Shown piece by piece: positions 1-20,000 of a stretch of DNA of 20,000 nucleotides. Both the position numbers and the translations under genes were made by a program. The notes under the pieces were generated by a model that saw only the letters and a program-made list of their open reading frames with translations, was not told the origin of the DNA and ran no database searches. Source of the DNA: Psammoneis japonica (lineage: Eukaryota); NCBI GenBank assembly GCA_008632985.1, contig QPGO01000091.1, positions 307,780 through 327,779 of the forward strand, in the 5' to 3' direction. Position 1 is the first letter of the stretch. Each line of letters starts with the position of its first letter.

Positions 1-1570
1 TCCCCGCTATTGATGTTCACTCCTGGTTCTGTGTACGCTTCTTCCGTGTTGAGTTCTCCTTTCTTTGGTTCGACCACCCACTTGACATCGAGTCCAAACT
101 TGGCCGCAAAGGCAAAATCACGGCTATCATGAGCCGGTACCGCCATGACGGCTCCCGTTCCATACGACCCCAACACATAATCACCCACCCATATTGGAAC
201 GCGATCACCAGAAATGGGATGAATGGCGTATCCACCCGTAAAGACACCCGTCTTTTCCTTGGCAGCCGTACGATCCAAATCCGACCGTGATGATGTTTTC
301 TGAACATATTCTTCAACAGCATCCTTTTGCTCATCGGAACAAATGGACGACACCAAGGGATGCTCTGGTGCCAGAGTCACATAGGTGACACCCATGAGCG
401 TATCGGCGCGCGTCGTAAAGACCGAAATATTCTGTAGGGACGTCTGGGGTGTGAGTGTCGTAGTTCAATCCGATGCGTCTCGTATTCCTTTTACCAATCA
501 CACTCACCTCATCTTCCATTCCTTCAATGGCAAAATCAATATTGCATCCCGTACTTTTTCCAATCCACTGTTGTTGTGCCGTAAGCGTTCCACTCGGCCA
601 TTGCAACCCATCCAAACCCGCCTCGAGCCGATCGGCATAATCGGTAATTTTCAAGACCCACTGACGAAGAGGCAAACGTTCGACGGGATGATCTCCACGC
701 TCTGACAGGCCGTTAATGACTTCCTCATTGGCCAACACGGTCCCAAGTGCCGGACACCAATTGACTGACACTTCCGACTGTGTGGCGAGGCCTTTTTTGA
801 AAAGCTACAGTGGTGTAGAGTGTGAAAAAAGAAACGAGTCAATTCAATGCATACAGCTACGAAAACCAGCTTTCATTTACACATTTTTCCCAGGCAACAA
901 CATTCACTCACTTGCAAAAAGATCCATTGAGTCCACTGCACATACGCCACATCGGTCGTGGCGATTTCTCGGTCCCAATCATAACTGAAACCCAACATTT
1001 TGAGCTGTCGTCGAAAGTTATCGATATTTGATTTTGTGGTTTCGGCCGGCTGTGCACCCGTTTGAATGGCAAACTGTTCCGCAGGTAATCCAAACGAGTC
1101 CCAACCAATGGGATGCAACACATCGAAACCCTTCATGCGCCAATAACGAGACATGACGTCGGAAGCTAGAAAAACGGGAAAACAGTTAGTGAGCTTATGC
1201 TGAACACAAAAGTGATCAACTACTACAACACTACCGTACCTGTATAACCCTCGGGATGCCCCACATGCAATCCAGCTCCGGATGGATAGGGAAACATGTC
1301 TAAAACATATTTTTTCGGCTTGTCGGGAGATCGTTCCGGTGTTTTAAATGTCTGATTCTCTTCCCAATAGGCTTGCCATTTTTGTTCCACTTCGGCAAAA
1401 GGATATGTCGTTGATGCAGCTGCTGCTGGCTCTTGTTGTTGTTGCGTCGTGCTCATCCATGTTGACGAAGAAGAAGCTCTTGCAAACCGGGCAACTCGAC
1501 AAGGTACAAACGCGGATGCAACCCGAAACATCATCATTACCACCACCCAACAAAAAGCCGATTGTTTCAT
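1..1570 (-). CDS. leuS: Organellar (bacterial-type) leucyl-tRNA synthetase, N-terminal part; 3' end lies outside the window. Exons 1570-1240, 1165-912, 804-508, 431-<1
   Basis: Spliced translation gives LeuRS motifs: [18 protein letters not shown] (HIGH), [33 protein letters not shown], and editing-domain [11 protein letters not shown] and [16 protein letters not shown] introns at 1239-1166, 911-805 and 507-432 keep the frame. N-terminus has a signal peptide followed by ASAFVP. Confidence 0.95.
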
Positions 1571-2104
1571 TCTGATTTTCTCGAAAAAAAAGAAACCTCT
1601 TGCCTTTCAATCAAAAATTCTCGATACCAACAGACAATCAGCCCTTCAATCTTTGATATTCACAATCTCAAACAAACAGCAATAGCTAACAGACGAAGAT
1701 CGTTGTGATGGTCCTATCCGCATCACCGCACCTTTGTCAGATTTCAGAAAGAACGTCAGATTTTTTCTTTGTCATGTTGTGCGGTGGCGGCAGGGTTCGT
1801 CAACAAAATTCCGGATTCCCACATGATACGTATCGGCAGGAATGGAGTATTCTAATCTTCAAGACTGAAGTAAAACATTATATATTTATCCCGAAAATCG
1901 TAATATAAATATTTATGATCATTCCTAATCCACAAATCTGAATATTCATTCGTGCGAAACAAATTCCAAACCAACGCAAGAGGAGAGTGGCTCACACAAA
2001 TAATAATAATGCCATTGTTGTTATATGTTTCATGGGACTGTTTGTTGTTGCGGATGCAATAGAGAGTGAGGCGTCTATTGTTTGACAAGACCACAAAAAG
2101 AAGG

Positions 2105-3543
2105 ATGATGAGGTCGCTGTTGCTGTTGTCATTGTCACTATCGTGTCTTTTGTTCTTCTCCGCAAGAGCAGAGATTGACTTGGATGATTTGAAATTAAAT
2201 CAACACACGTTTATAACCTCACACAATGCCGCCACGGGCGAAGACAATCTTTCCAATGGCCTTGCGAGGGATGTAGACAATCAAGAAGTGCCCATTGCCC
2301 AACAACTCGAGTGCGGAGCACGTGCTCTCGACTATCGTCCTTTTTTGCGTTCGGACGGCAGGTTGGTGGCACGGCATGGCATTGCACGCATTCAAGTGCT
2401 CATGAAACAATCGGTGCAATCCATAAAGACGTGGTTACAAAACAATCCCACGGAACTGGTAATCCTATATATCAGCAAAGCGGATGCGGAAGGGTCCTTT
2501 GACAGTTTGGATGCTTATAGTTTTGCCGAAGACGTGTTGTTATCGGAAGGAGTGAAATGGATTCGCGATTGCAACGAAATGGTAGGTCTCACGGTGCGAC
2601 AAGCAAAGATTGATTCACAACTCGCAAATGGCGGACACTTGTTGGCTGTGTTTGGATGTACCGATGAACAGTACGATCCCAATATTCGTTGCTATTTTGG
2701 GAGCCATGACTGTACCGACTATGATGTCCTTCCCTTCATACAGTATGACAGCTACATGGTTGAACACACCAACTTTCCCAAGGCCTCGTCCGTCACGAAT
2801 GGAAGACTCTACATGTCTCAGGCTCATTGGCAATACGATGCTTTTGCTCTACTCGTCAAGTCTCCAGCCATTACTTGGGACGAACGCGACTCGGGTCTCA
2901 ATGCTCGTACGGCCCAAGCCGTGAGCCGTGGCGAGTACAACTTTTTGAATCTGTTGGAAGTGGACAATGTTTGCAACAACGGCGCTCGACTCAAGGCAGC
3001 TGTGGAGAAATTCATGGCGCCCAATCCTCAGGTCAATTGTCTCTCCAACAACAATCGACTACGAGTAGGAGAATTTATAGAGAGTGAGAATGGACATATA
3101 AAGCCATGCTGCGTCCAGATGGACAATTGTGCATCAACGGTGGTAGTGGCGTCTCGCAGTGGTGCACCGGCACGTCGGCTCCATCCTACGAGGGTGGCGC
3201 CGGTATTGTCAAAATGAAGGACACTGGAAATCTCCAAATGTTTACTCCGACCGACAACAATTACTGGTCAACCGGTACCCAAGGCGGCGGATTGGAGTTG
3301 GTGCTGCAAAACAATCGAGACTTGGTCATTCGGAATGCCCGCACGGGTGTCGTCGAGTGGTCGTGCAGCAACAATGGGGGTTGCCCAACAGTTTCGTGTG
3401 GAAGTGATTGTGGAAGCAATGCTTGTCTCGACAAGAGTACGGTGCGTTCGTTTACTCCCGCTCCGTCGCCGGCACCGCCACCACCCAACGATGGTGGAGG
3501 AGGAGGAGGTAAACCTTGGTATTGCTTTTGGGTTTTTTGCTAG
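2105..3543 (+). CDS. Secreted PI-PLC-X-like phosphodiesterase with C-terminal bulb-type (B) lectin domain; one frameshift at ~3100
   Basis: Hydrophobic signal peptide (MMRSLLLLSLSLSCLLFFSARA), then TSHNA...QQLECGARALDYRP...ARHG with both catalytic-type His. Adding one A at 3100-3102 joins the 2066 ORF to the 3106 ORF, giving LRVGEFIESENG...MLRPDGQL...MKDTGNLQ...WSTGT...LVLQNNRDLVI...WS, a typical B-lectin pattern. Confidence 0.75.
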
Positions 3544-3871
3544 AGTAACTCGACAAGAAATGATATCGGCTATCTCTCTTATTCATTGCTGATTGACAAG
3601 CATTAATAAAAATAAGCATTGTTTACTTTCTGTAAGTCAAATACGACTACTTCAAGTTAATGAAGAAGTAGACCAACGTCAGCTGCAGCATTCCAAATAG
3701 TCAAAGTCAATTCTGGTGACCTTCTGTCACGTTGTGTGTTATATTTTTAGTTTTCTGGCGTCTAGCTAACTTGGAACATTTGTATCTCGGGTTTTGGGTT
3801 TCTTATTTAGAAGTAACCTTTGTCGAGGTTCGATTGAATCGACTAAAATTCTTCTCCTTTGGCGCTCAAAC

Positions 3872-4078: not shown

Positions 4079-4239
4079 ANTTGGTCATGTTTTGGTTGTT
4101 CCCAAGCGTTCCTACCTCCTCATCTTCTGTTCCACCCGCAACAGACACGAACCAAAGTTGTTTCTCACAACGATCCAACCTACGACGACTTGTACCTCAC
4201 ACTATTTTTCTCCCCACTACAAACAACAAGAACCACAGC

Positions 4240-5586
4240 ATGCGTTTTTTCCTGCCCTTTTCTTCATCTTCCTTGCCGCAGCTACCAAAGGATGACACTA
4301 CAATCCACTTGACGGCCACTGAACAGACCAATTTGGATTATGGAATACCGCCGACATCGACCGTCGATTGGTTCGAGGGTGATTATCAAAAAGTTGCGGT
4401 TGTTCTCAAGGCCCGTATGGAGGATATGTTATCACAAAACGAATGGTTGTCGGGCCGATATCTGGGCAACGACAAGTTGCATACTCGCCTACGACACGAT
4501 GCTTCAATGTCGAGGACATGTTGAAGGTGGTGGACCCATCCATATCTCCCCTTGATGACAATACATCTCCATCATGTGACGACTTGGTCTCCATGGGACA
4601 ACGAAGTAATTTAGGCTTGACGTTGGTGTGCGAAAATTATCAGTCTCAACCTTTTTGGAAAGCTTCGTTGGTCCCGACTCGTACAGGTACACACTTTGCA
4701 CTCTACGTTAGTTTGTCCCATGGGATTGGAGATGGATACGCATACTACAGCCTCTACAACATGTTGGTCGGGTCCATACCAGTGCGATCCATGACACCGA
4801 TCCGAATCGCCACCACCAAGCAGCAACAAGAAGCTGTCATGGGAAAGGAGGAAGCAAATTATGCCACGTCGCCAGGAGTTGTCTTGTTTTTTTCTGTGGG
4901 GACTGATGCAAAAATATTTTGCATGGAACAAGAAAAAGGTGCAAATGAAGCACAAGATTGTAATGGTGGACCCTACCAAGATTCAATCCGTCAAACAAGA
5001 TTATGCAGCTTCCGCAGCAAAGACGGATGCTACTTCGTCGCCAGACTTTATTTCTACCAATGACATTATCACAGCCACCCTTATGAGACATTCTGGTTGC
5101 TCCCATGGTGGCATGGCCATGAATTTACGGGGACGGCTAGAAGGCCACACTATGGATCATGCCTTTAATGCGGAAAATGATATAATCTTTCGGGTTCCCG
5201 AGGATGTGGCCACTCCCGCGTTGCTCCGAAAAGCCACAATTACCATGAGACGTGCCGCGACAATCGATAGACCCTTTGGTAGCTGGGAAATGGGTGGGTT
5301 GCGAACGAGTCTATTCTTTGTGACAAACTGGTCCACCTTTAAAAAGGATACCGATATTGTGGGATGCAAACATGTGTTCCATTTGCCAAACTACGACATG
5401 AACAAGACTCTTCCGCCGAATGCATCCATGGGTGTGATTTTCAAGCCGCGGAAAGGTCAAGTGGCGGTATTGTTGGGAGGAACTGATGAAACATTGGCAC
5501 CACTCGCCCACGCGGCTGAGGTCTTTGCGACGGCGGGGTCCTTTGAGTTGTTTCCGCCAGTAGAGCAACAATCGCTTCAAACATAG
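4240..5586 (+). CDS. HXXXD-type CoA-dependent acyltransferase (BAHD/CAT-fold-like); two frameshifts (~4470 and poly-T at ~4890)
   Basis: Three overlapping ORFs give a continuous protein: NEWLSGR, then SLSHGIGDGYAYYSLYNML (HXXXD), then FISTNDIITA, MNLRGRL, VTNWSTF. No intron is evident at the junctions. Confidence 0.7.
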
Positions 5587-5880
5587 AAGTGGTTTAATGA
5601 GAGATCGTTTGTTGCCTTTCCGCTGTCCCTACTAAAAGCTCCTGCGTGCGTCAGGACTTTATGATTCCAATCATTTTGTACTCCTTCTGTAGCTACTGTA
5701 GAGATAATCTGGTTGAAGGAGTTGTAACAAAAAAATGGCATTCCTCTTCTAAGCTAAAGACATCCGTTACCCTCTACAGGATGATGCGTGAAAAGTACCA
5801 TAGTTTGTACGTTCTATCACACTCCCTCGGTCAAGAAACCCTTCATTCCAAAAGACTCCACCACCCAAGGATTTAATGTC
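5142..5880 (+). repeat. Direct repeat copy 1 (~740 bp): acyltransferase 3' part, intergenic DNA and the last ~40 bp of the GPDH gene
   Basis: Aligns by eye with 9862-10607 from aggcc(a/g)cactatggatcatgcc through to cacccaaggatttaatgtc. Confidence 0.92.
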
Positions 5881-7155
5881 GTCTACATTATTTTGGGTTT
5901 CCTTGGGTGAAGGTTAGCTGCTGTCTCTGTCGAAGTTGTTTCGATTGGATCGATTAAGAATCTTTAGCCCCAAGTTGGTCACAATTTGGAGCAACCTGCT
6001 AGAGCAATCGAAAGGTAATGCACCACCATTGCATACGCGCTTTCAGCGGATTCATCAGCCAAAGAGCTCACATCCCTCAGCGTTCGGAGCCACCAATTTC
6101 TCTTTGATATTCCGAATTAGCTCCTGGCTTTGTTCAGTTAAGACGCTCACACGAAGCCCAAGATTATCTGCCCTGAGACGTCCAAACAACAATCTTTTGA
6201 AATCTGCCTGTCAAAAGAATCAACGCAGGTTAGGATATGACTTCAAGGATCCACTCTTTTCCACCGCAGATGATGGCTGGCAGATACAGTAAGGTTCACT
6301 GTTATACTCTAGTCTACTAGCTAGCTAGATGGCAGACAACAGACAACAGACACAGAATGATCGCGCACCCGCTGCGACCGACGCGCTCACGCAGCCACAA
6401 AACAAAAAGAAACAGCAGCCACAGAGCAGCCATGCAAATCTTTCACTACTTTGATGTTCTTGTATCCCACTCACTATCTTGACGGTCAAGTCACGACCTT
6501 GGTCCCTTGGTCCTGTTGGCGAGGTGTACCGTTCAATGCGGATAGATACTGAAGTAAACGCAGGCAGATGAGCTGACGGTGGCAAGATCTTCAATCTCCT
6601 CGTACTCTCTGCGTAGAATGCTACGTCAGGTGGCGGATCACGATTCAGTGATGATCAAGATGCGAAACTCGAAACCGAAATCGATAGAGTGTATCGTACG
6701 AACCTCTGGCAATGCTTAAGCCAGCGCCCATCGCGAGCACATGTCAGATACCGTTATCTAAATGACATACAAGGACACCCCAGGAGCTCGTGAAAAGCTT
6801 TTTAATTGTTTCCATCTTTTGACGATTTTTCCCCAAGTTTCAAGTTGGATGTGTGATCGATTTCGGGAACATGCCTACGCTCGCGGACTCGCGGAACTTC
6901 CGCAGTTGGGCAACACGGGAAACCTCTCTGTTAGTTCATTACCAACATGAGTACCGTCTCCGGGAATTTGAATTGACATAAAATTCTCCGGACCGTTTAG
7001 CGAACATTTTTGAACTGAACGTTGAGACCGGCTCACACATGAACTGTTTGTTCGTACCGGCTCGGCTAGCGCGAAAATCAAGATTTTTGCAGGAACCTTG
7101 CCGTTTGAATCAATCGTGTTCTGCTCATTATTTTCCCCGAACAAACTCGTTCATC

Positions 7156-9686
7156 ATGATGGCGGATCGCTATGAGGAAACGATCGATGCCATCAAGGCA
7201 CTCCAGATCAAGGAGGACGAGAAGCACGACGGAGAGCTTCAACACAAGGGAGAGGAGCAATCCGAGGGAGAGAAGCAATCCAAGGGAGAGGAGAAGAACG
7301 TAGAGTTTATCAAGAAGCCGCAGCCAACGGATGGTAAGAAGAGTGTTCGCATGCGCCGAATGCTTGATTCGCTCTTTGATGATATGTCTGCGCAGAAGCT
7401 GGACAAGATTCCGAAGCTCGACCTGTCGTCAACCTTGAAGAATGTTGAATTGTACCCACATCAAGAACAAGGCATCTCCTGGTTGGTTCACAAGGAAGAG
7501 TCTGACGAGCTTCCAGCCTGGTATGCGAAGAAGACACGCAAGGACAAGAAGACAGGCGAGGAAGTTGTTCGCTACAAGTGCCTAGTTACGGACGAAGAAT
7601 ATGATCAGAAGCCAGAGCCAGTCCGCGGATCTATTTTGACCGACATGATGGGCCTAGGAAAGACCATACAAGCATTGGGACTTATTGTGGCACGTCCAAG
7701 CCCAAACGAGGTTGGCACGACTCTCATTGTGTGCCCCGTTTCTGTCATGGCGACATGGGCAGGTCAGATGTCGGAGCACGCCCCCCACTTAAAATTGGAA
7801 CTCTTCTACGGCAAGAATCGTCAGGCTGCGCTGGAACTAGTTAAAGAAGGCAAGGTCGATGTACTCTTGACGTCGTACCACACGCTCGTTTCTGAGCTCA
7901 ACAAATGGAACGAATACCAGGAAAAGGACCTCGAGAACGACGAACGCAAGAAGAACGGACGTCGCATCAAGCACAAGCTTTCTCCCACAGATTTCATCTT
8001 TGACATTCCTCTCTTTCGCACCATCCTCGACGAAGCCCATGAAATACGCAACCCCGACACATTTTGTTTCTCTGCGTGCTGCGCGCTGCAGACGGAATAC
8101 AAGTTGTGCTTGACTGGAACGCCTTATGTCAATCGTCCAGAAGACATTGGTTCGCTCTTGGGGTTTCTGGGTGCTAAACCGCTGAATGATCCTTCTGTAT
8201 TCAGCAAAAATGTGACCGTCCCGATTGTTAAGCTACAAGAGGTGGGGTTGGCTCGACTTCGGACCGTCATGGCGCATGTGACTTTGCGCCGGGAGAAGAA
8301 TGTTATCAGTAGCCGCCCTCTCCCCGCCAAGACCATTGAGCTTGTGCGTGTCGGCCTTTCAGAAGGCAGTCTTCACAAGGCTGTCCTTGACAAATTCTTT
8401 GAAACAACGCGAGCGTGCATTATTGGCGTTTACCAGACTCAGAAGAATTTTGGACTCGATCGGAACGGAAAAGTCATTCGTCTTGACTTGTATCCCATTC
8501 TCGAACTCTTACTTCGGAATCGTCAGGCTGCATGTGACTTCAGACTTGTGCCCTGTGATCGTCGAGTCTTTATTGACAAAATTGCTTCGAAGGTTAAGGA
8601 GATATCTGACTGGACAAGTTCCGAAGGTACTGCGCTGCTTAAAGAAGTCATCGGGACTAAGATTCAAGACACCGATGCGGAAGAAGAGAGTTGCCACAGT
8701 GCAGTCGATGACGATTCAGATGAGGAACAGATCGAGGTTTCATTTAATTCGGAAAGTGAGGATGAAGCGGATGGTCCGCATTGCGAAAACTGTCAGGAAT
8801 CTCTCAACGAGGACACCGCGGTGGTGGTACGAAGCTGTGGGCATGCCTTTTGCGAGGGTTGCCTCGACCCAGGCGCCGGTCAGTTTTGTCCTGAATGTCG
8901 TCAGCAATACAAGCTGTCTGATTTAAGTCGTCAGATTTCCACGATGACTCCCGTCAAAACCAAGACTCCAAGGAAAAGCAAGCGTTCTTATCCAGCCGAG
9001 GAAATGAAAGAGCTCGACTTCAGAAGGAGCGCTCTCCGAAGACTGAGGCTATGCTAAAAATAATTGACGACATGGAACCCGACGAAAAGGGTGTGATTTT
9101 TTCTCAGTGGACATCTCATCTTGATATTTTGGAGGACGCGCTACTTGAAGAGGGACACACGTGCACCCGAATCGTTGGATCCATGAATGGAGAACAGCGC
9201 ATGGAAGCCATCCGAAAGTTTTCTACAGCAGAGTGCAACTCCGATGAGACACCCCGTTTCGTTCTTTGTTCAATCCGTGCCTGTGGTCAAGGCATTACCC
9301 TCAACAGGGCAAATGTGTGCTTTCTCATGGACCCTTACTGGAATAAAGCGGTCGAAGAGCAAGCCATGGACCGCGTCCATCGCATCGGGCAGCAGCGTAA
9401 AGTTCGCATTTATCGTCTTGCGATGAAGGATTCCATTGAAGAGCGCTTCTGGGACTTGCAAGATGCCAAAGCAGCCTTAGGAAAGGGTTCACTTCAGAAG
9501 CTTTCCTCTCAAGAGCGCAAGAAAGCCCGCCTTACCTTCTTGCGTGACTTGTTTCAGATTGAGGACAAGGATGTGTTTGTAGCGGACACCCAGTGGGACA
9601 CGGATCTCCACGACTTTATTGACGACGATGATCTTTCTTTCGGAAGCGATGATGAGGATGAGCTTTGGATCGAGAGTGTCTTATGA
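7156..9686 (+). CDS. RAD5/HLTF-like SNF2-family ATPase with inserted C3HC4 RING finger; intronless, one frameshift at ~9022
   Basis: LYPHQEQGISWL, DMMGLGKT (Walker A), TLIVCPVSV, ILDEAH, LTGTP, RING CENC...CGHAFCEGC...CPEC. In the second frame: SPKTEAML, IFSQWTSHLD, GQGITL, MDPYWN, QAMDRVHRIGQ. Confidence 0.9.
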
Positions 9687-10293: not shown

Positions 10294-10607
10294 TCACTTC
10301 AAACGTATAAGTGAGTTGCTGGGAGACCGTTTGTTCCCTTCTGCTTCCGCTTTCTTTTCTAAAAGCTCCGGCGTTCGTCAGAACTTAATGGTTCCAGTCA
10401 TGTTGTACTCCTTCTGTAGCTAGAGCTAGAGGTAGTCTCGTTGAAGGATTTGTAACAAAAACGGCATTCCTCTTCTAAACTACAGACATGCGTTACCCTC
10501 TACAGGATGATGTGTTGAAGTACCATGCTTTGTACGTTCTAACACCCTCCCTCGGTCACAGAAACCCTTCATCCCAAAAAGACTCCGCCACCCAAGGATT
10601 TAATGTC
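9862..10607 (+). repeat. Direct repeat copy 2 (~745 bp), overlapping the true 3' end of GPDH
   Basis: Diverged copy of 5142-5880; nearly identical over the acyltransferase C-terminal codons and more diverged in the intergenic part. Confidence 0.92.
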
Positions 10608-12986
10608 TTCTGCCTTTGTTCCACCCAGACTTATCTCAGCAGACAATTGTTTGTGAAATGCAGTATCCGCTCCGTGATTCCACCACTCCTCGAATTCTTC
10701 AAAACTGACTCGCCCGTTTCGGTTCTCGTCCATTTCTTCGAACGCCTTGCTCAATTCATCATCTTGCATGGGGAATCCCAACACGGATGCAACTTCTCCA
10801 ACTTCGGTACGATCCAAGAAACCGTTTCCATCCGTATCAATAGCCGCAAACAAGTCCTTAATCTCTGTGTAGGTTGCATCTCGCAAGGTGGAGCCGGCCT
10901 TGTTGGGAATACGTCCCGCATAGGATTCCACATACTTTTGCGCCAAAATCTTTTGTTCCGCCTTGACATCTTCCGACCAACCCAGCTCGGTTGCCATAAT
11001 GTCTGCGACATGAGGAATGGCCGCAAGAGCAGCGTCCTTGTTGAGGAACGCCAAACGCGTACGCCGGCTCAACACATCCTCAATGGTGCAGGCGTATTCT
11101 CGACAGGCATACACGACTTCGGCATCAATGTAGGGAAAGTTGGGCGCCAATGGAACACCAAAGCGCGGCCATACCTGATTGGTGGGTTGCGACAGTTCGC
11201 ACACCTCCCATGCCCGACCACCGTAGGTTTTGGCTAAGTGGTTGGCCGTCTCTTGTGCCATGCCGTGTTTTTGAATCAATTGAACAGCCAAGTTTTCTGA
11301 GTCTGCGCAAAAGAAACGAGGAACAGAGAGGGTATATTAGAACAATGGTATACAATGTAATACCATCACGCACATACGTACATCCATCTCCACCAAAGAG
11401 AGTCATGTCGAGCGTTTTGCATTTTGGTCCGTCCGTTCCAACGACACGATCAATCACTTCTTCTGCCATTTCTCTCCACGTCGTCCACTTTCCTCCGGCA
11501 ACAAACAATACATCCGTGTCGGGATTTTCGGAAATAATGTGATCCCTCGACACGGGCGCATCCGGTGGAGCGTGCGGGTCCACCGCCAGCGGTCTCCATC
11601 CCCGCCAAGCACTCAGCACGTCGGATCGGCGCACAAGCAAATCTTTGGACAGGTACTTGCCACACTCGTTCAGTAGCCACTGGACTTCATCCTCGGGTGG
11701 ACTAGGCAGCGTTTCGGCTGGACCCTTTGTGTCGGTCGTTCCCACCAGTGTGTGCTTTTCCCATGGCAAAAAGAAGAGAAAGCGACCATCCGACGTGTTG
11801 TAGTCCAACAGTCCCATCTATTGTGTAGTAAGTAGCAAAGAAAGAAAAGGGAAAAGAAATACGAGAGTAAGCATCAGCTAGTTGCTCCATTTCCTTTGAC
11901 CACGAAACAATTACTTACATCGTTTGGACAGTAGTAACCGGGCAAGACAACATGGGTACCAGACGCACCACGGACCGCGGGTTGCATGTCTTTGGACGGT
12001 TGTTCCATTTTACGCATATCATCCGTAAACGGCCCACCGGCCAATACAATCTTTCTTGCTTTGATTTCAAATTCCTCATTGGACATGCGATCCACCGCCT
12101 TGATACCCACAGCCTTGCCCGTTGTGTCGTCGAGAATCATTTCCGTCATTTCGACATAATTGGCAATCGTGGCTCCCTCCTCGGCTGCCGACAGGGCAAT
12201 GGCAATGTTGGTCCGGGCATCATTGTGTTGAGCCTCGTAAAAGACGGCACAGTACTTGATTTGTCGACCCGACAATTGGGGAAAGGCCAGTTTGGCTTTG
12301 GTCTTGCCCATGCTATAGGACGGGGGACACGTGAAACCCGAGAGCGAATCGTAAAATTTCAAAACAAAAGGTGCCAAAACGGGAAAGAATCCAAACAGGG
12401 CATGGCCAAAGGGCGGTGGACTGACATGCCATGAATCAAAGGGAATGGCAATGGGAACCCAATTGGTCAAGTGCTTTTGCTTTTCCGTCATGTACCGTCG
12501 TTCTCGATGGCAATTGATTACCATTTTCATTTCGCCGTAGAAATCCTTGATGGTATCGATGGGATTGGTAAAGAGTTTGGTGCTGAGTAGAGAGACAGAA
12601 GCGGTAGCCATGTACCGAATACCGGCCCAAATAAGCTTGGTGCTTCTCGAACTTGTTTCCGACGCAAAATCACCTCGTTCAATGCACGCCACCGACAAGC
12701 CACGTGAGGCAGCATCCAGAGCACACCCCGCTCCCGTGGCACCACCACCGACAATTAACACGTCATATTCAACATCCTTCGACTTGAGGCTTTGCAATTG
12801 ATCGGCACGAGATGGCAATCCCTCGGGACCTTCTACAGGCTTGGGATGCGTCGCAACGCCCGTCAGATTCAAGCCGGCATCTCGTGTAGCAGTGGTTGAA
12901 AAGTACGAGACGCACTGCCATTGATTTCTTCTCGAAAACGACACGACTCTTGTGCTATTAAGAACGATACGCCCGTGTCGCAACAT
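10569..12986 (-). CDS. GPD2: Mitochondrial FAD-dependent glycerol-3-phosphate dehydrogenase with two C-terminal EF-hands. Exons 12986-11919, 11817-11382, 11302-10569
   Basis: DVLIVGGGATGAGCALDAASRG, DFASETSSRSTKLIW, LVGTTD, AGGKWTTWREMAE, DVLSRRTRLAFL; EF loops DTDGNGFLDRTE and DENRNGRVSFEE. Arg/Ser-rich presequence. GT-AG introns at 11918-11818 and 11381-11303 keep the frame. Confidence 0.95.
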
Positions 12987-13134
12987 GGTTGGCAAACACA
13001 CAAAACAGAGCTATATGAATACTCTGGACTTGCAAGCAAAGTCCCGGTCGTTTGTTGTTGCCGTTGCCGTTGCCGTTGCGTCGAGAAAAATGAGACGAAT
13101 CACGAATCCTTTCTTCGTTTGCACGTATGTATTG

Positions 13135-14710
13135 TGCTGACGAATTCCGACCGCGCGATCGTCGTCAGAATTCTCGCGCGACGTCATCTCCTTGCCCTGC
13201 ATCCAGTTTGCCTGCTCGTCCTGGCCCACTTGCCAAGGCTCACCTCAGCAGCACAAGAGACAAACTCTCTTTGGCAACAGCAGCCCCTCTGCCAATGGCA
13301 CTTCTGTTGTCAATGCCACCAACCAAGCTGGTGGCCGGCTCCTCCTCCCTTTTGCCTTGTTTCTTTTTGGCCATTTGTGTGGTGGCGCCAGCTGCAACTT
13401 CTGCGCCTTCTTTGTTGGCTCATCTTATGACCTTTCCACTTCTGCTCCTCCTCCTCCTCCTCCTCCTCCCCCCAAGCCACCCTGGGCTGATTCCTCATAA
13501 CCTTCTTTCTCAGCCTGTCAAACATCCCAGCACTTTCTCCAACCAACATCCTGGCCAGAGCCATTGTTGCCTGCTTGCAAAAGCAACTGCTTTCTCCTCT
13601 GGCCGACTCAGATCCTCCCGTCACTCATCCACCCCCTCTGTCTTGGTCTGTGCAGCTCCTCAGTCTCAACTTTGGTTTGGCCTCAGCAAGCCACCCAGTG
13701 CTGCCAGTCAAACTGTCCTCCACACTGACACTCCGCCTCTCTTTGTCCTCTCTCCCCGCCAGTCATCTGCGCACACGTGCTGCCAGAGCCCTCCTTTTTG
13801 CACTGCTGTCCCTTCTAGTCTCCATGGCTGTGACTCCACTGCCACTCATTTCTGTTCAAGAACCCAACTTTCTCACACCTTAAATTCCCCAAATCATCAC
13901 AAAAAAACACCCAAAACATTCCCACGTGGCAGTGGACACACCACACACAAAATCAACCATGTGACAATCACAACATCTTGGCGCCCAGCAATCACAACTC
14001 TGACACCGACATGCTCTCTAGTCCCCACATCAACAGCACAAAGAAAAGATGAGCACATCCACCAAAAAAAGGTGAGCAAAAATGGGGGAAAGTGGGCAAA
14101 CACGGCCTTTTGCCATGTCTTGTGCGCCCAGCCTTCCATGGGGTTGAGTTGTTGCAGCTTTGGTTTGTTGGTGACAGACTGAAGAGTGTGCAACCCGTTG
14201 TTTTCTGGAAAGTCCCCCAAGGAATGTGAAAAAAAGAGGTTGATCTTGTCCTTGGTTGTTGTTGAGTGGCCACTGGGCTTGTTTTGCTTGGTCAACTGGC
14301 GAGTGGAAGCACGGTCGAGCAGCTGCCGGGCTTGTTGTTCGTTGGGCCCAGCACTGGGAGACTCAACAGCCCGCCCTGCTTTCTTCTTTGAAAGTTCACA
14401 TGCAATCATCCACCATGTTGTGTTGGTGTGGCAAAGTTGCGACGTGTTTTGGAGACGCCATGGATGCCACATTTGTGCATGAGTGTGCCACTGGATGCTT
14501 TCAGCCACTCGCGACTCTTCTGGCTGAGGGCAGGGGTCATCCCCCACTTCTTTTTCGCTCGTGTCTCGTGTTTTGCTCCAAAAAGCTCGTGATTCGTGAT
14601 TGTTTCAGATCGACATCTTTTGATCATTACACCGGCACACGGGATCATCATCCATCATTCATCATGGTCGCCATGAACACACACACTGCACGACGTCTCT
14701 TTTTGTCAAC
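13135..14710. other. TpA- and CpG-depleted, TpG/CpA-rich block; probably a heavily mutated repeat or TE relic
   Basis: About 6 TA dinucleotides in ~1575 bp and about 30 CG in 13201-14580. Long overlapping ORFs on both strands are nearly Tyr-free and have no recognisable domain. Confidence 0.7.
13446..13469 (+). repeat. (CTC)n microsatellite
   Basis: ctcctcctcctcctcctcctcctc, about 8 units. Confidence 0.8.
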
Positions 14711-14988
14711 TCTAGGGCCCTCGATATTTTCTGGGTCGGTTGAAAATTCCTGTCGCTGTACTCCTTAACGGTAGTAATCCGTTGGGGTTGAGGATACGAA
14801 TATCTCGCCATGTTGGGAGCGGCCGCAGTACGAGAGAGATAGAGCAATCGACCCACCTAGCCGGCGATTATCTTGTTGAATATACCTCTGCTAAGAGCAG
14901 AGTGGAAATGACGGCTTGCTCTTCTACACCAAAAATTACGACATCATAGCCAAGTATCATTGAACCTCACTCAATTATTTGTACTCGT

Positions 14989-15336
14989 TGTGGGAAAGTA
15001 GCCGGAATTCTAAGATTCGTCTGCACTTTCAGTGATTAAAAGCTGCAATTACGATACAACAATCAATCAGTAACTTTATTGTACCAAAAGTTGAGAGGTG
15101 ATAATCAGTACGTTAGAAAGATTATGAGCAGTTTTTATGAGCAGATGCAGCTGCCATCTAAAGGAAACGCGAAGTTAAACAAGCGCGAAGCTAGGAACAA
15201 ACATCGCATTCGTGACTCGGCTTCCGCGGGGATTCGAGACTGAGCATCGCACACGGGGTTCGAATCTTGGATCTTTGACTTGAATCGTGGAGGTCCGATG
15301 TTGTTGTAAAAACATGCAAATATGAATATTGTCACA
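14989..15336 (-). repeat. 3' LTR (start at 15336 firm; end 14989 tentative, alternative 14811)
   Basis: Begins TGTGACAATA directly after the PPT; AATAAA at 15080-15075. Candidate end ...CTTTCCCACA (TGTG/CACA termini); alternative ...CTCCCAACA at 14811. No second LTR in the window to confirm. Confidence 0.65.
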
Positions 15337-15344
15337 CTCCCTTC
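15337..15344 (-). promoter_or_regulatory. Polypurine tract
   Basis: GAAGGGAG immediately before the LTR TG, about 35 nt after the pol stop. Confidence 0.8.
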
Positions 15345-15379
15345 AACAATGTCGGGTGGAATGATGACTCGAAAACGTC

Positions 15380-18300
15380 TTACCACTTAAGGAGCGATTT
15401 CCTGTGTTTAACGAAGAGATTCTGTGGTAGAGGTTTGGTGAAAATGTCTGCAATCTGATCCGCCGTATCAATTGGTAGGATTGATATGAGACCTTTGCGA
15501 ACATGGTCTTTAAAGTGGTGGAGAGTGAGGTTGAAGTGTTTTGTCCGAGGACGCATCTTAGGCAATCTCGCGATCTCCAATGCTCCAGAATTGTCTTCAA
15601 AAGCCTTACAATGTACGACTGGTGTCTTGGAAGGGACATTATGACCGTGATCCATAAATTCTTGAATGAGGTTCATAATTGGGATGGCGCTTCGAAGACT
15701 TTCCGAAAGAGCGATAAATTCAGCTTCAGTAGTGCTGAGCGCGATCTGAGTCTGTAGCTTGGACGTCCAGACAATCGGACATCCTGCATAGGTGATGACA
15801 AACCCAGTTCGAGATTTGGAAGTGCCGACGTCATCGGGTGCAGTCAGCTTATTCCAATTGCCCACAAAGTCCGCGTCGGCGTGAACTTCAAGGGACTTGT
15901 CCGTTGAGGGCTGTAGTATAATACCTTCAGTTCTGGTTGACCTTAGGTACTTACAGAGCCATAGTACGGCTTCACCGTGAGAAACCTTGGGATCGGAAGA
16001 AAAGCGTGCGACTTGGTGCACCGCGTAAGCGATATCCGGTCGAGTGCTCTTCTCCAGAAAATTGAGCTTGCCGATGATGGATCGGTAATGAAAGCTCCCT
16101 TGGAAAGCAGGCTCACTCATATGCCTGTGGAGGATCTTGGAGGAAGGAGCAGGAGTAGACTTATCTGGTAGTCTCTTTGGAATATTGGCCATCTCCAGTA
16201 TCTGATTGATAAGGTGAGGTTGGGTAAGTTTCATTCTGCCGTCTGGTAGTGTCTCGACGTTGACACCGAGATAGTCGTCCAGAGTGCCTTGATCATCAAT
16301 ATCAAAATTCTCATCTCTGATATCCTGTATCGCCTTGTCAATAGCAGACTTGTCAGGGGATGCAAAGATACCGTCATCGACATAATGAATGAAAATGACA
16401 TTGCACGAAAATACAGGCACTCATCAACCGCCGATTGTACGAAACCAATCCTTAACAATCCATCACGTAAGTGTTCTTGCCATACTCTCCCTGCTTGCTT
16501 TTGTCCATATAAGTTCTTGAGCAACTTCAGAACATGAGTCTTACCATTGCCATATTTTGTTTCAATTCCTGCAGGTAATCCATGTACATATCATATTCGA
16601 TATCGGCATGCGGATACGCCAGAACGAAGTCGACTTGGCGTGTATGCCACTTCTTAAGAATGGCAATGATCAGTAGGAGCCGGATAGTGAACCAGAAGAC
16701 CACGGCAGAGTAGGTCTGGAAGTAGTTGACAGCATACTCTTGCTTTCCGCCGTGCACATTAAGTCGGGACTTCCATTGTAGACGGCTTGGGTCTTAATAT
16801 CTCTTTTGCGCTTCATAGACCATACCGAAGGGAGAACATCAACATCGTCAGGTACGTCCTCTCTTGGAATGAGTATCCAATGTTTCCTTTCAATATGATC
16901 ATTGACCTCCTTAACACAGGCCTTGATAAATTCGTCTCTGTCAGGTTCACGCATAGCCTGATCAAAGTACATGGTGTCGGGGTCCGAGCTCGCCAGAAAA
17001 GAGATAGATGAGTCCATATCGTCCTGCAGTTTGTAATCATCCTCGTGCATCGCATCATAATATGCCTCTGCCTCTGCATTGTAGGAGACAATGCCTTGAG
17101 CCCGTTGTAGTTGGCTCTCGCGCATTCCTTTCGGTCGGGCGTCGTTGTCGGCCGGACCTACTGGTACTGGGCTGACCCATAGTGCGCTGTGGCTCAGATG
17201 GTGCGTCAGAATCATCTGGAGGCGTGTATAGCATTTCGTCATCCGGTTGGGCATTATCAAATGAGTCATCAGTGGTAGACGTATCAGTAGGATGCAGCAG
17301 CTGAGACGGGACATCCGAATTCGGCTCAGGTGGTTCCGTTGTGGTAGGGACTGATCCCTCAACCGGTACGTCACTTGATTTCCCAAAGATGTTGAAAGTA
17401 CTCCTTGTCTTGAGTTGTCTGAAACCTGTAATGCCTTGCCATTGTGAGAATGTAGGAGGATTCCCAGCAGATGGACGAACAGTCTCAAAGAAGTCGTCAA
17501 ATTGTACGTGAAATTGCGGCGATACGAGTCCGGTCTGCAAATTCAAAACCAAGGTAACTGAACCTGCGTGTCTTGTTGATGGTCCCAAATTGATTCCTAA
17601 CCTTGCCCTTGGGTCCCACTTAGGCAGCCTACCTCCTCCCTGCAACCGGTTGTGCAAGGCGTAGACGGGACAGCCGAAGGTATGGTGTTGTTTGAGATTA
17701 GGCTGGACCTTGACGGACGAGAAACGTTCCAGCGGAGAAGAGCCGTCCTCGTGATTCGGTAAGTGATTCTTGATCTCGTTTGAGTTCCTGAGAGCGCTTG
17801 GCCATAAGTTCAACTCAATAGCCGTTGGCCATCTCACTTTTGCATGCAGGAGTTGCTTCCGAGATTGCTCTTGGAGGTCCCTTATTCTTTTCTCCGCGAT
17901 GCCGTTTTGGAAGTGGGCGTTGACCCCACAATAGGATATTGTTTGCTGTTGCTTCTTGACGTCTTGTATGAAAGCATTATCAGCAAATCTTCCATTGTCG
18001 GCGTGGTAGTGTTGAATACGGACGTGCATCCGGCGTGCGAATGCCTCGAAAGCGTGCTTGGCTTCGAGCGTCTCGGCTGAGGTAAGTCCTTTCTGCAAAT
18101 ATATGTATCCCAATCCGCTGAAATGATCAACAAAAATTGTCGCTGCTCGATACCTTTGTTTCGTAGGTCTCCCTTTGAGCTGTGGGATCAATCCAGGAGT
18201 AGGACTCTCGAGCTGGTCGACGGATACGGCTTCTCCAGGCGAAGTTGCCAAGTGGATTCGTCGGTTCCGCTTGGACTTGGAGCGCCATGGTCGTTTCGTC

Positions 18301-19637
18301 ATGGCACCGTATAGGCAGCCGGCACATTTTGGGTTGTGTACCTTTGTAAGGCGTTTCGGTAGAATGCCTAGGGCGGCCAATAGCTTTATCATTTTGAATG
18401 ACATGTGGCCCAGGCGGTAATGCCAACGCAATAGTTCACCCTGGTCATCTGTGGCAGCAAGGGCGTCATCATTTGGTATGATGTTGATGGGTTCCGGTAA
18501 GTCCTGCTGTACCTCCGGTGTCGTGAAATCCCTTAGGTTTTCCTCGTCTGAGTCTGAACGACTTGCTCCGTCTGTTGGCTCAAATAAGACAGGAGCATCC
18601 TCATCAGTAGTGTTGCGTGCGTCTTGCGTCTCGGAAGGACGTGTCTCGGATGGACTTCTGAAGACGTCTGTATCAATTGCAGCCTCGTCATCATTCGCAA
18701 TACTCTCGTCGTCTGGTGGTATGATGTGAGCTTGATAGGCCACGTGCTCGATAGTTTCGATATCGGTTTGTTCTTCGACAGCGGCTGCAAAGGTCCGGTA
18801 TTTGTTGGAACCGGGTGCGGAGCGCATCTTGGCGACGTTAGAGTTGGCGGACCATGGAATCAGGCGATGATACTTGCGTTGATCCCACATGAGTAATAGT
18901 CCGTCGTCCCTAGTCCAAGATACGGTTCCGTGAGGCTCTGGCGTGTGGTCATTAGCTTGCTGGCTCCATTGCTGCGGGCAGAGAAGACAATGAGGTAAGT
19001 CCGGTACGAGTAGCGCGTCTCGAATTTTGATGCTGTGCACTCGTCCCATGTCGTCCTCAATTGCCCACTGCACTGTTCCTTCTCCCTTAGCACGTAAGTA
19101 GCCCTTGACACCGAGTACCACTTTGTTGGATTTGCGAAGAGGACCAATGAAGTGTGCCTCGTCGTTGGACATGGTGCAGGAAGAATGCGAGTCGACACCG
19201 ATTACGAATGAGTCCGAATCGTAAGTGGGCTCCGTTCGCTCGGGACGGTATGGTGTGGTTGAGTTGTACGCTCTAACCGTCTTGTATCGCGTAATGACAT
19301 AGTGAGCCTTCTTGGTGGCCACTCTGGAGCGGTGACCTGGCCTCGTCGACGTATGATACCGTGCGCAGTACCTCGTCGTTGGCCGTCGCTGGTAAGTCTT
19401 AACTCGTCTTGTGCCTAGTTCAGCCAGGATATGTGAGATGACCCACTCACCCAGCGTCATTACGGCATGTGACAGGCGCTTACACTTTTCTGAAGGAAGG
19501 GATAGCATCATGAATAGTAGTATGATCCAGATCGGTGCTGCACATTTCATGACGCCAGCGACCGCTATCAGGAGCACTGACACAGTGACGGCTATCTGCA
19601 AGGACAGCAGCAGTGTCAGAGTGAACCTGTAGAGCAG
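15380..19637 (-). CDS. pol: Copia pol polyprotein (hydrophobic leader, protease, integrase, RT, RNase H); four single-base frameshifts at ~17125, ~16776, ~16578, ~16404
   Basis: Protease IGVDSHSSCTMS; WHYRLGH...CAGC zinc domain; integrase SVDQLES, ADNG, NGIAEKRIR; RT SVWSMKRKR, RLNVHGGKQ, QVDFVLAY, LYGQKQAG, HYVDDGIF; RNase H ADADFVG, STTEAEFIALS, EDNSGA, DQIADIFTKPL. Confidence 0.93.
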
Positions 19638-20000
19638 TCACTCTTGATCCACTTCGTTTAGGATGGTAGAGATAGCACTTGCGAAGGAGACTTTCTTGTC
19701 CGACGTGTCTGTGGATGGAGCAGACTGTTGCTTGCGGAGTCTACAGCCTTGGTTGCCCGGATCATCAGGTAAGTGTATGACCCAAGCAGTGTGATATGGG
19801 CACCAGTGATAGTCGCGATTGTTGACGCGCTTGTGATAGTACTGATGACCGTTCACTGTCTTCTTAGGAGCGTCCTCCTTAGGCGGGACTTTCTTCCAGG
19901 CTTCGTCCGCTTTCTGTCTCTGACGTGGAGTGGTCTTGGTCTTCCTTGACCGTGTGCTTCTTTCCTTGGTTGAACCAGCCTTGGCCTTCAAAGCTTTAGA
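19638..20000 (-). CDS. gag: Copia gag, C-terminal part (open to the window edge)
   Basis: Basic region, AWKKVPPK, then a Cys/His knuckle YHWCPYHTAWVIH...C and an acidic end NEVDQE-TGA directly upstream of pol. Confidence 0.8.
   Translation of the reverse strand, partial: SKALKAKAGSTKERSTRSRKTKTTPRQRQKADEAWKKVPPKEDAPKKTVNGHQYYHKRVNNRDYHWCPYHTAWVIHLPDDPGNQGCRLRKQQSAPSTDTSDKKVSFASAISTILNEVDQE

Follow-up and report, generated by a model that had tools for sequence, protein, structure and literature searches.

Gene Neighborhood of the Block

The window, by which we mean the whole 20,000-nucleotide stretch of DNA from the diatom Psammoneis japonica that was analyzed here, contains, according to Pfam, a leucyl-tRNA synthetase on the minus strand (positions 3–1343), a weak PI-PLC-like open reading frame (ORF), an SNF2/RING helicase on the plus strand (6982–9686), and, on the minus strand, a mitochondrial-type glycerol-3-phosphate dehydrogenase with DAO, DAO_C, and EF-hand domains (10569–13010). 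The named proteins most similar to the dehydrogenase come from diatoms (Pseudo-nitzschia australis, 63%; Seminavis robusta, 61%; also Striatella and Thalassiosira exigua), and its best matches among unnamed proteins reach 70–73%, as fits a diatom without close relatives in the protein collection that was searched. Its start lies about 120–145 bp from the edge of a block (13131–14627) that is almost devoid of the dinucleotide TpA and is the subject of this analysis. The assembly carries a single N at position 4080.

The block is followed by a spacer (14628–14988) of single-copy depth and normal composition (22 TA against 25 expected and 21 CG against 20) and then by a Copia retrotransposon on the minus strand. 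The 3' long terminal repeat (LTR) of this element (14989–15336, with 15336 as its predicted inner end) has TG..CA ends, and a PPT-like purine tract, GAAGGGAG, stands just upstream of it. The LTR had been placed next to the block, at about 14711, in the first-pass annotation; the intervening DNA proves to be the spacer. The internal region of the element (15337–20000), which has RVT_2 and integrase-side domains and a normal observed/expected ratio (O/E) for TA of 0.6–0.8, runs off the window. This Copia copy is not fully open between 15380 and 20000 on the minus strand: it has an in-frame TGA at 19638–19640, a frame change at about 17055–17542, and a break between 16420 and 16670.

Contigs of a sequencing run, here called X1, were aligned at a likeness of at least 80% and are possibly the source data of the assembly; X1 was the one DNA run found to contain the locus, and no RNA run was listed for it. 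Their summed depth, which is not equal to copy number, is 2857–3842 over the LTR against about 60 in the flanks; from 14989 onward it jumps to 780–3840, and loose contig ends mark the repeat boundary. Contigs called X2, from the same sample, have very uneven depths (32, 325, and 11).

Dinucleotide Composition of the Block

A near-total loss of TA, with low CG and abundant TG and CA, had been described for 13135–14710, and the counts bear this out: the interval contains 6 TA where base composition predicts 87.5 (O/E 0.07) and 49 CG where it predicts 103 (O/E 0.47), and CA and TG stand at 1.58 and 1.63 times expectation. The limits of the block had to be redrawn. The TpA-erased block proper (13131–14627) holds 5 TA in 1497 bp against 82.5 expected (O/E 0.06; CA 1.54, TG 1.64), and the depletion of CpG, with gain of TpG and CpA, occupies a narrower core (13218–14299; 15 CG against 68 expected), CG being kept at the TA-free edges (13131–13217 and 14300–14627). 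The five internal TAs are found at 13426, 13498, 13816, 13881, and 14019. The block takes in the three longest stretches without TA in the window (609, 318, and 296 bp), and the runner-up measures 162 bp. In 1552 other windows of 1497 bp from the same 20 kb the TA count ranges from 34 to 82, with a median of 60; the Poisson probability of five or fewer TAs is about 3e-19, and the lowest count among 2000 mononucleotide shuffles was 59. The 20-kb window as a whole has a TA O/E of 0.55, its lowest 500-bp window outside the block reaches 0.28, and its other gene-flanking stretches have values of at least 0.33. Over the SNF2/RING helicase region (7001–9500) TA O/E is 0.28–0.47 per 500 bp with normal CA+TG (about 1.1), which is ordinary coding bias, unlike the signature of the block.

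Within the block AA stands at 1.53, TT at 1.15, and AT at 0.67, and because these dinucleotides are not lost, the loss is specific to TpA and does not reflect a general shift from AT to GC. Biased gene conversion, or any general drive from AT to GC, is likewise rejected, since AA and TT exceed expectation and the GC content is just 52% or so. The deficits of about 77 TA and about 55 CG roughly match a CA+TG surplus of about 106; the TpA/ApT ratio is 5/55 and the (CpA+TpG)/(ApC+GpT) ratio is high. We also applied the measure used for the chlorarachniophyte Bigelowiella natans, which couples low TpA with high CpA+TpG and defines a cluster as at least three consecutive 1-kb windows. Two 1-kb windows, starting at 13001 (0.17/1.52) and 13501 (0.05/1.69), pass its thresholds, and no others in the 20 kb do so; at only 1.5 kb, the block is too short for the rule of three consecutive windows to apply.

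Strand composition divides the block into a pyrimidine-rich sub-domain (13131–13879), an A/C-rich sub-domain (13880–14079; 38 CA, 9 TG), and a G/T-rich sub-domain (14080–14499; 60 TG, 29 CA). A runs test on CA and TG gives a z of -1.7 for the block against -2.3 to +0.6 for controls, so the clustering of strand patches is not unusual. The pyrimidine-rich part includes a (CTC)8 microsatellite on the plus strand (13445–13469), at which X1 contigs break. A dense CpG cluster (13141–13182) with two GAATTC sites and a palindromic CGATCG lies where the TA-free zone begins on the left, a short way upstream of the dehydrogenase gene; this cluster may be an unmethylated promoter island.

Searches for Relatives, Copies, and Function

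Among X1 contigs at least 80% alike, no second contig aligns to the block bins at 13474–14411, which are covered by one contig at a depth of about 60, equal to that of the dehydrogenase gene. The block is apparently single-copy and not a repeat, and since 360 bp of normal DNA also separate it from the Copia element, the earlier description of the process as repeat-targeted does not fit. Some short piece of the block within the bin 13206–13339 does have look-alikes elsewhere in the run, the summed X1 depth of the bin being 366 against about 60 around it. Both block edges are spanned by X1 contigs, at 12000–13254 and 13480–14989, with one and three differing letters, respectively. The X2 contigs include one that ends at 13077, in a (GTTGCC) repeat, and one of 330 nt at 14640–14969; a joint across the block is not reported, and X2 is uncovered between 13077 and 14640, a gap that proves nothing. 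The contigs thus speak neither for nor against the block as a possible intron.

Between 12500 and 15500 no meaningful direct or inverted repeats were found, and the sole array reported by Tandem Repeats Finder within 13131–14586 is (CTC)8; two small tandem arrays (14587–14601 and 14646–14665) mark the right edge of the TA-free stretch. In a comparison that tolerates transitions, DNA was collapsed to purine/pyrimidine and the block was aligned to the remainder of the window, both strands included, and to its own reverse complement. The best scores, 39 and 32, are at the level of five shuffles (33–38), from which we conclude that the block neither forms a hairpin nor derives by transitions from any other part of the window.

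Pfam searches with 4 block ORFs at an E-value of at most 0.01 and with 19 ORFs at an E-value of at most 5 returned noise only. The 235-aa minus-strand ORF had no hits in a phmmer search against 1.84 billion protein representatives, none of 4733 candidates matched the 362-aa plus-strand ORF in a search of 5.8 billion proteins, and IMG/VR held nothing for either. With these results and the transition-tolerant comparison, the view of the block as an old transposable element finds no match at the level of Pfam, protein, virus, or DNA. The only Rfam match, sR11, reached 21 bits, well short of its gathering score of 39. As far as can be told, the block is non-coding, with no coding or RNA-family signal. 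Its stop triplets comprise 2 TAA, 2 TAG, and 21 TGA; with TAA and TAG lost and TGA the sole remaining stop, long ORFs arise by default and are not evidence of genes, an explanation that had been offered for them from the outset.

Variation among Copies of the Copia Element

Sequence contexts were looked up for 40 listed places of the 115 at which X1 or X2 contigs read another letter, and the Copia evidence rests on these listed places; the other 75 include 13 C>T and 16 G>A, possibly reverse changes. In the Copia part at 14989–16000, 20 of the 25 listed A>G/T>C differences fall on TpA (9 TpA>TpG and 11 TpA>CpA) and 5 fall off it. Given that 17% of A/T positions in this interval are in TpA (47 TA; 281 A; 274 T), the binomial probability of 20 in 25 is about 9e-12; in the worst case, with all 35 unlisted A>G/T>C places assigned to sites off TpA, the fraction becomes 20/60 and the probability 0.0016. 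Again among the listed places, 4 of 6 G>A differences are CpG>CpA, and neither TpG>TpA nor CpA>TpA occurs.

At two TA sites both products are present: the TA at 15109/15110 is CA in 25% and TG in 47% of depth, and the TA at 15952/15953 is CA in 17% and TG in 20%. The occurrence of both variants suggests TA as the parsimonious ancestral state at these sites and hence the polarity of the changes. Both senses are also carried by the same two contigs, of depth 179.1, which read A>G at 15608 and T>C at 15730. Over all X1 places there are 62 A>G/T>C (24 A>G and 38 T>C), 39 C>T/G>A (14 and 25), and 14 transversions, a spectrum of differences between old copies and not of new mutations, to which CpG decay adds G:C>A:T changes. 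The Copia element, described as young, had been said not to show the signature. That view applies only to the copy in the window, which keeps its TAs; the family is not exempt, and other X1 copies differ from it mostly at TpA. The differences between Copia copies give independent support, in the same genome, for a TpA-directed process.

Contigs of one sample show four differences in the spacer. Position 14688 is part of a TG in the assembly and X1 and of a TA in X2, a TA at 14841 is TG in X1, a TA at 14881 is CA in X1, and position 14856 is C versus G. Three of the four are thus TA versus TG or CA, numbers too small to test, and the X2 contig has TA at all three (14688, 14841, and 14881). The TA versus TG/CA differences of the spacer may be allelic.

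CpG Decay as a Compositional Control

Decay by deamination of methylated CpG is known in the methylated transposable elements of diatoms, plants, and vertebrates. The core of the block, where CG has fallen to 15 against 68 expected with TG/CA as the products, resembles it; the loss of TA does not, given that this decay leaves TA untouched. A metagenome scan for Copia relatives yielded six loci at 40–61% protein identity, which are too distant for substitutions to be tabulated and were used only as a control for composition. In 1-kb windows of these loci CG O/E falls to about 0.1 and CA+TG rises to 1.7, with TA O/E at 0.41–0.97. Locus L004, the part of L005 at about 4500–8000, and L006 serve as examples of methylation decay alone, with CpG O/E of 0.1–0.4, CA+TG of 1.4–1.7, and unreduced TA. 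These CpG-decayed relatives keep their TA, so CpG decay by itself does not remove TA, as the first-pass annotation had argued from known mechanism.

Comparison with Known Mutational Systems

A precedent for the proposed process exists: a preprint dated 2026-04-14 describes mutation-accumulation lines of B. natans in which mutation in two integrated viral regions is about 1000-fold faster than elsewhere in the genome, with 231 mutations in these regions, of which 230 are A>G/T>C, all of them on TpA (bioRxiv 10.64898/2026.01.13.699255). The affected DNA is integrated NCLDV and virophage; the genome has 124 clusters with the low-TpA signature and 324 predicted coding sequences (CDS) with a TpA frequency of 0.0018, the low-TpA sequences are enriched in reverse transcriptase and DDE endonuclease domains, and an ADAT2-like adenine deaminase of the ADAT2/TadA type acting on DNA is named as the candidate enzyme (bioRxiv 10.64898/2026.01.13.699255). 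The preprint makes no mention of diatoms or stramenopiles (bioRxiv 10.64898/2026.01.13.699255). In our literature search we met with no description of such a process from diatoms.

The likeness to the published account of B. natans extends to TpA>TpG and TpA>CpA changes on both strands, a long-term signature in which TpA is lost and CpA+TpG gained, unannotated ORFs or "CDS" that are nearly free of TA, targets of transposon type, and, presumably, DNA that is silent or foreign. Several features differ. The host is a diatom (a stramenopile) and not a chlorarachniophyte (a rhizarian); the block measures just 1.5 kb, is apparently single-copy, has also lost CpG, and is known from its sequence and not from mutation in real time. 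It is also far more depleted, with a Rho of 0.05–0.17 against 0.45 in the active NCLDV region of B. natans, and the X1 contigs show, among old copies, an excess (62 vs. 39) where the B. natans spectrum is near-exclusively A:T>G:C. With regard to the type of target, the Copia copies are selfish DNA; the block has no relative in the Pfam, protein, and IMG/VR searches.

Fungal RIP is similar in that it hypermutates silenced or duplicated DNA by transitions in a specific sequence context and can serve genome defense. Unlike the process considered here, RIP makes CpA into TpA and raises TpA, and we reject it for the block, which has lost TpA instead of gaining it and is not duplicated, no other X1 contig being at least 80% alike on it. 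The hyper-editing by ADAR that is fixed in animal retro-copies shares the clustering of A>G changes and the 5' U/T preference; it requires double-stranded RNA and acts in one strand sense per event, unlike the changes among the Copia copies, which show both senses.

Origin of the Block

In our preferred interpretation, to which we assign a probability of roughly 60%, the block consists of silenced, non-coding DNA that has undergone TpA>TpG/CpA hypermutation of the B. natans type as well as CpG decay. The DNA, possibly foreign or derived from a transposon, would have been exposed on both strands to a TpA-specific A:T>G:C hypermutation that ran nearly to saturation and, in the core (13218–14299), which has presumably long been methylated, to ordinary decay of methylated CpG to TpG/CpA, also near saturation. 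The two processes yield the same products, hence the excess of CA and TG. We infer that an enzyme, for which an ADAT2/TadA-type adenine deaminase is a candidate, carries out the TpA process and that this process might be aimed by chromatin or small RNAs. ADAT2 is, to our knowledge, universal in eukaryotes, so its presence alone says little. The TA-free zone exceeds the CpG-poor core on both sides and stops about 120 bp from the start codon of the dehydrogenase, which would fit targeting by chromatin domain and not by sequence. The interpretation of the first-pass annotation is supported in part: the Copia copies (20 of 25 listed differences on TpA) and the passage of the B. natans thresholds speak for its directional conversion of TpA to CpA/TpG beside CpG decay, and the attribution of the block to an old transposable element finds no support in the searches.

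We are cautious about this interpretation for several reasons. The searches turned up neither an ancestor nor a homologue of the block, so its loss of TA, and with it the former presence of TAs, is read from composition, and the block may never have had any. The strand-composition domains also count against the interpretation, given that transitions at TA and CG alone cannot produce them, as does a precedent that consists of one preprint on a different supergroup lineage.

Selection offers a different account, in which the block is a functional single-copy element, one that, for example, controls the dehydrogenase from upstream or encodes a long non-coding RNA, kept free of TA and CG by such pressures as the avoidance of RNases that cut at UA, of TATA-like starts, or of transposons that target TA. 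The apparently single-copy state of the block, its sharp limits, its position against the 5' end of the dehydrogenase, and the resemblance of its CG-rich left edge (13141–13182) to a promoter-type island are in keeping with this account. It is nevertheless unlikely, because we know of no constraint that bans one dinucleotide across 1.5 kb on both strands, no Rfam family or protein relatives were found, the other gene-flanking stretches of the window do not fall below a TA O/E of 0.33, and the TpA-centered variation of the Copia copies is left unexplained. The compositional domains, the (CTC)8 array at 13445–13469, and the multi-copy short match within 13206–13339 could instead indicate an old low-complexity tract, generated by slippage of motifs free of TA and CG (for instance CTC, CAA/TTG, and CAG/CTG), not yet randomized, and then subject to CpG decay. 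There is little chance that this is so: that array is the only one inside 13131–14586, there are no repeat families of note, and the 287 CA/TG steps of the block should have given many TAs through C>T and G>A, considering how far the sequence has departed from any repeat unit, where just 5 exist.

The change could also have occurred at the level of RNA or cDNA, if an ADAR- or ADAT-like deaminase edited a retroelement transcript and the edited copy then integrated, which would make the block a hyper-edited retro-copy. The neighboring element belongs to a many-copy retrotransposon family, and the 5'-U preference of A-to-I editors, which is raised in the discussion of the B. natans preprint, matches TpA (bioRxiv 10.64898/2026.01.13.699255). 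Editing of one strand predicts one sense of change, however, and the listed Copia differences include 9 TpA>TpG and 11 TpA>CpA, with both senses in the same two contigs (15608 and 15730); the block itself has both CA and TG in excess and no retroelement homology. Moreover, we know of no ADARs outside animals, and we regard this route as improbable. An artefact of assembly or base calling, such as systematic miscalls at modified bases, would be in line with the N at 4080 and with the few places at which the assembly differs from X1, but is very improbable indeed, since X1 contigs reproduce the block across both edges with one and three differing letters, a comparison that is not fully independent if X1 is the source data.

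Implications

Extending the preferred interpretation from the block to its host group, we tentatively suggest, at less than even odds, that diatoms run a DNA-level defense of TpA-specific A>G editing beside cytosine methylation, directed at retrotransposons and other silenced DNA. If this is true, diatoms, which are major marine primary producers, share a process known from one chlorarachniophyte and a single 2026 preprint, and the same signature in a rhizarian alga would mean that the system is ancient within SAR or has evolved recurrently. The diatom host, the LTR retrotransposon family as a target, the CpG decay alongside, and the more complete end-product would then be new. Such a system would be a candidate for a widespread eukaryotic genome defense and the third that mutates the invader, after RIP and APOBEC, and it would suggest an adenine deaminase that acts on DNA and is of interest for base editing. 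A class of tyrosine-free orphan ORFs would also be explained, as relics devoid of TA that gene prediction takes for orphan genes. Mutation-accumulation lines already exist for model diatoms and make the hypothesis directly testable.

Facing Repeats around the Block

The block is framed by a candidate inverted repeat, in which (ACGAATC)x2 at 13095–13108 faces (GATTCGT)x2 at 14587–14601. We rejected it as a transposon end: the matches are 11 nt long and have a chance of about 0.03, a target-site duplication is absent, and the TA-free zone does not reach the left arm. The facing 7-mer arms could be coincidental or could form a binding motif, and the same 7-mer recurs at 15014 and 18255.
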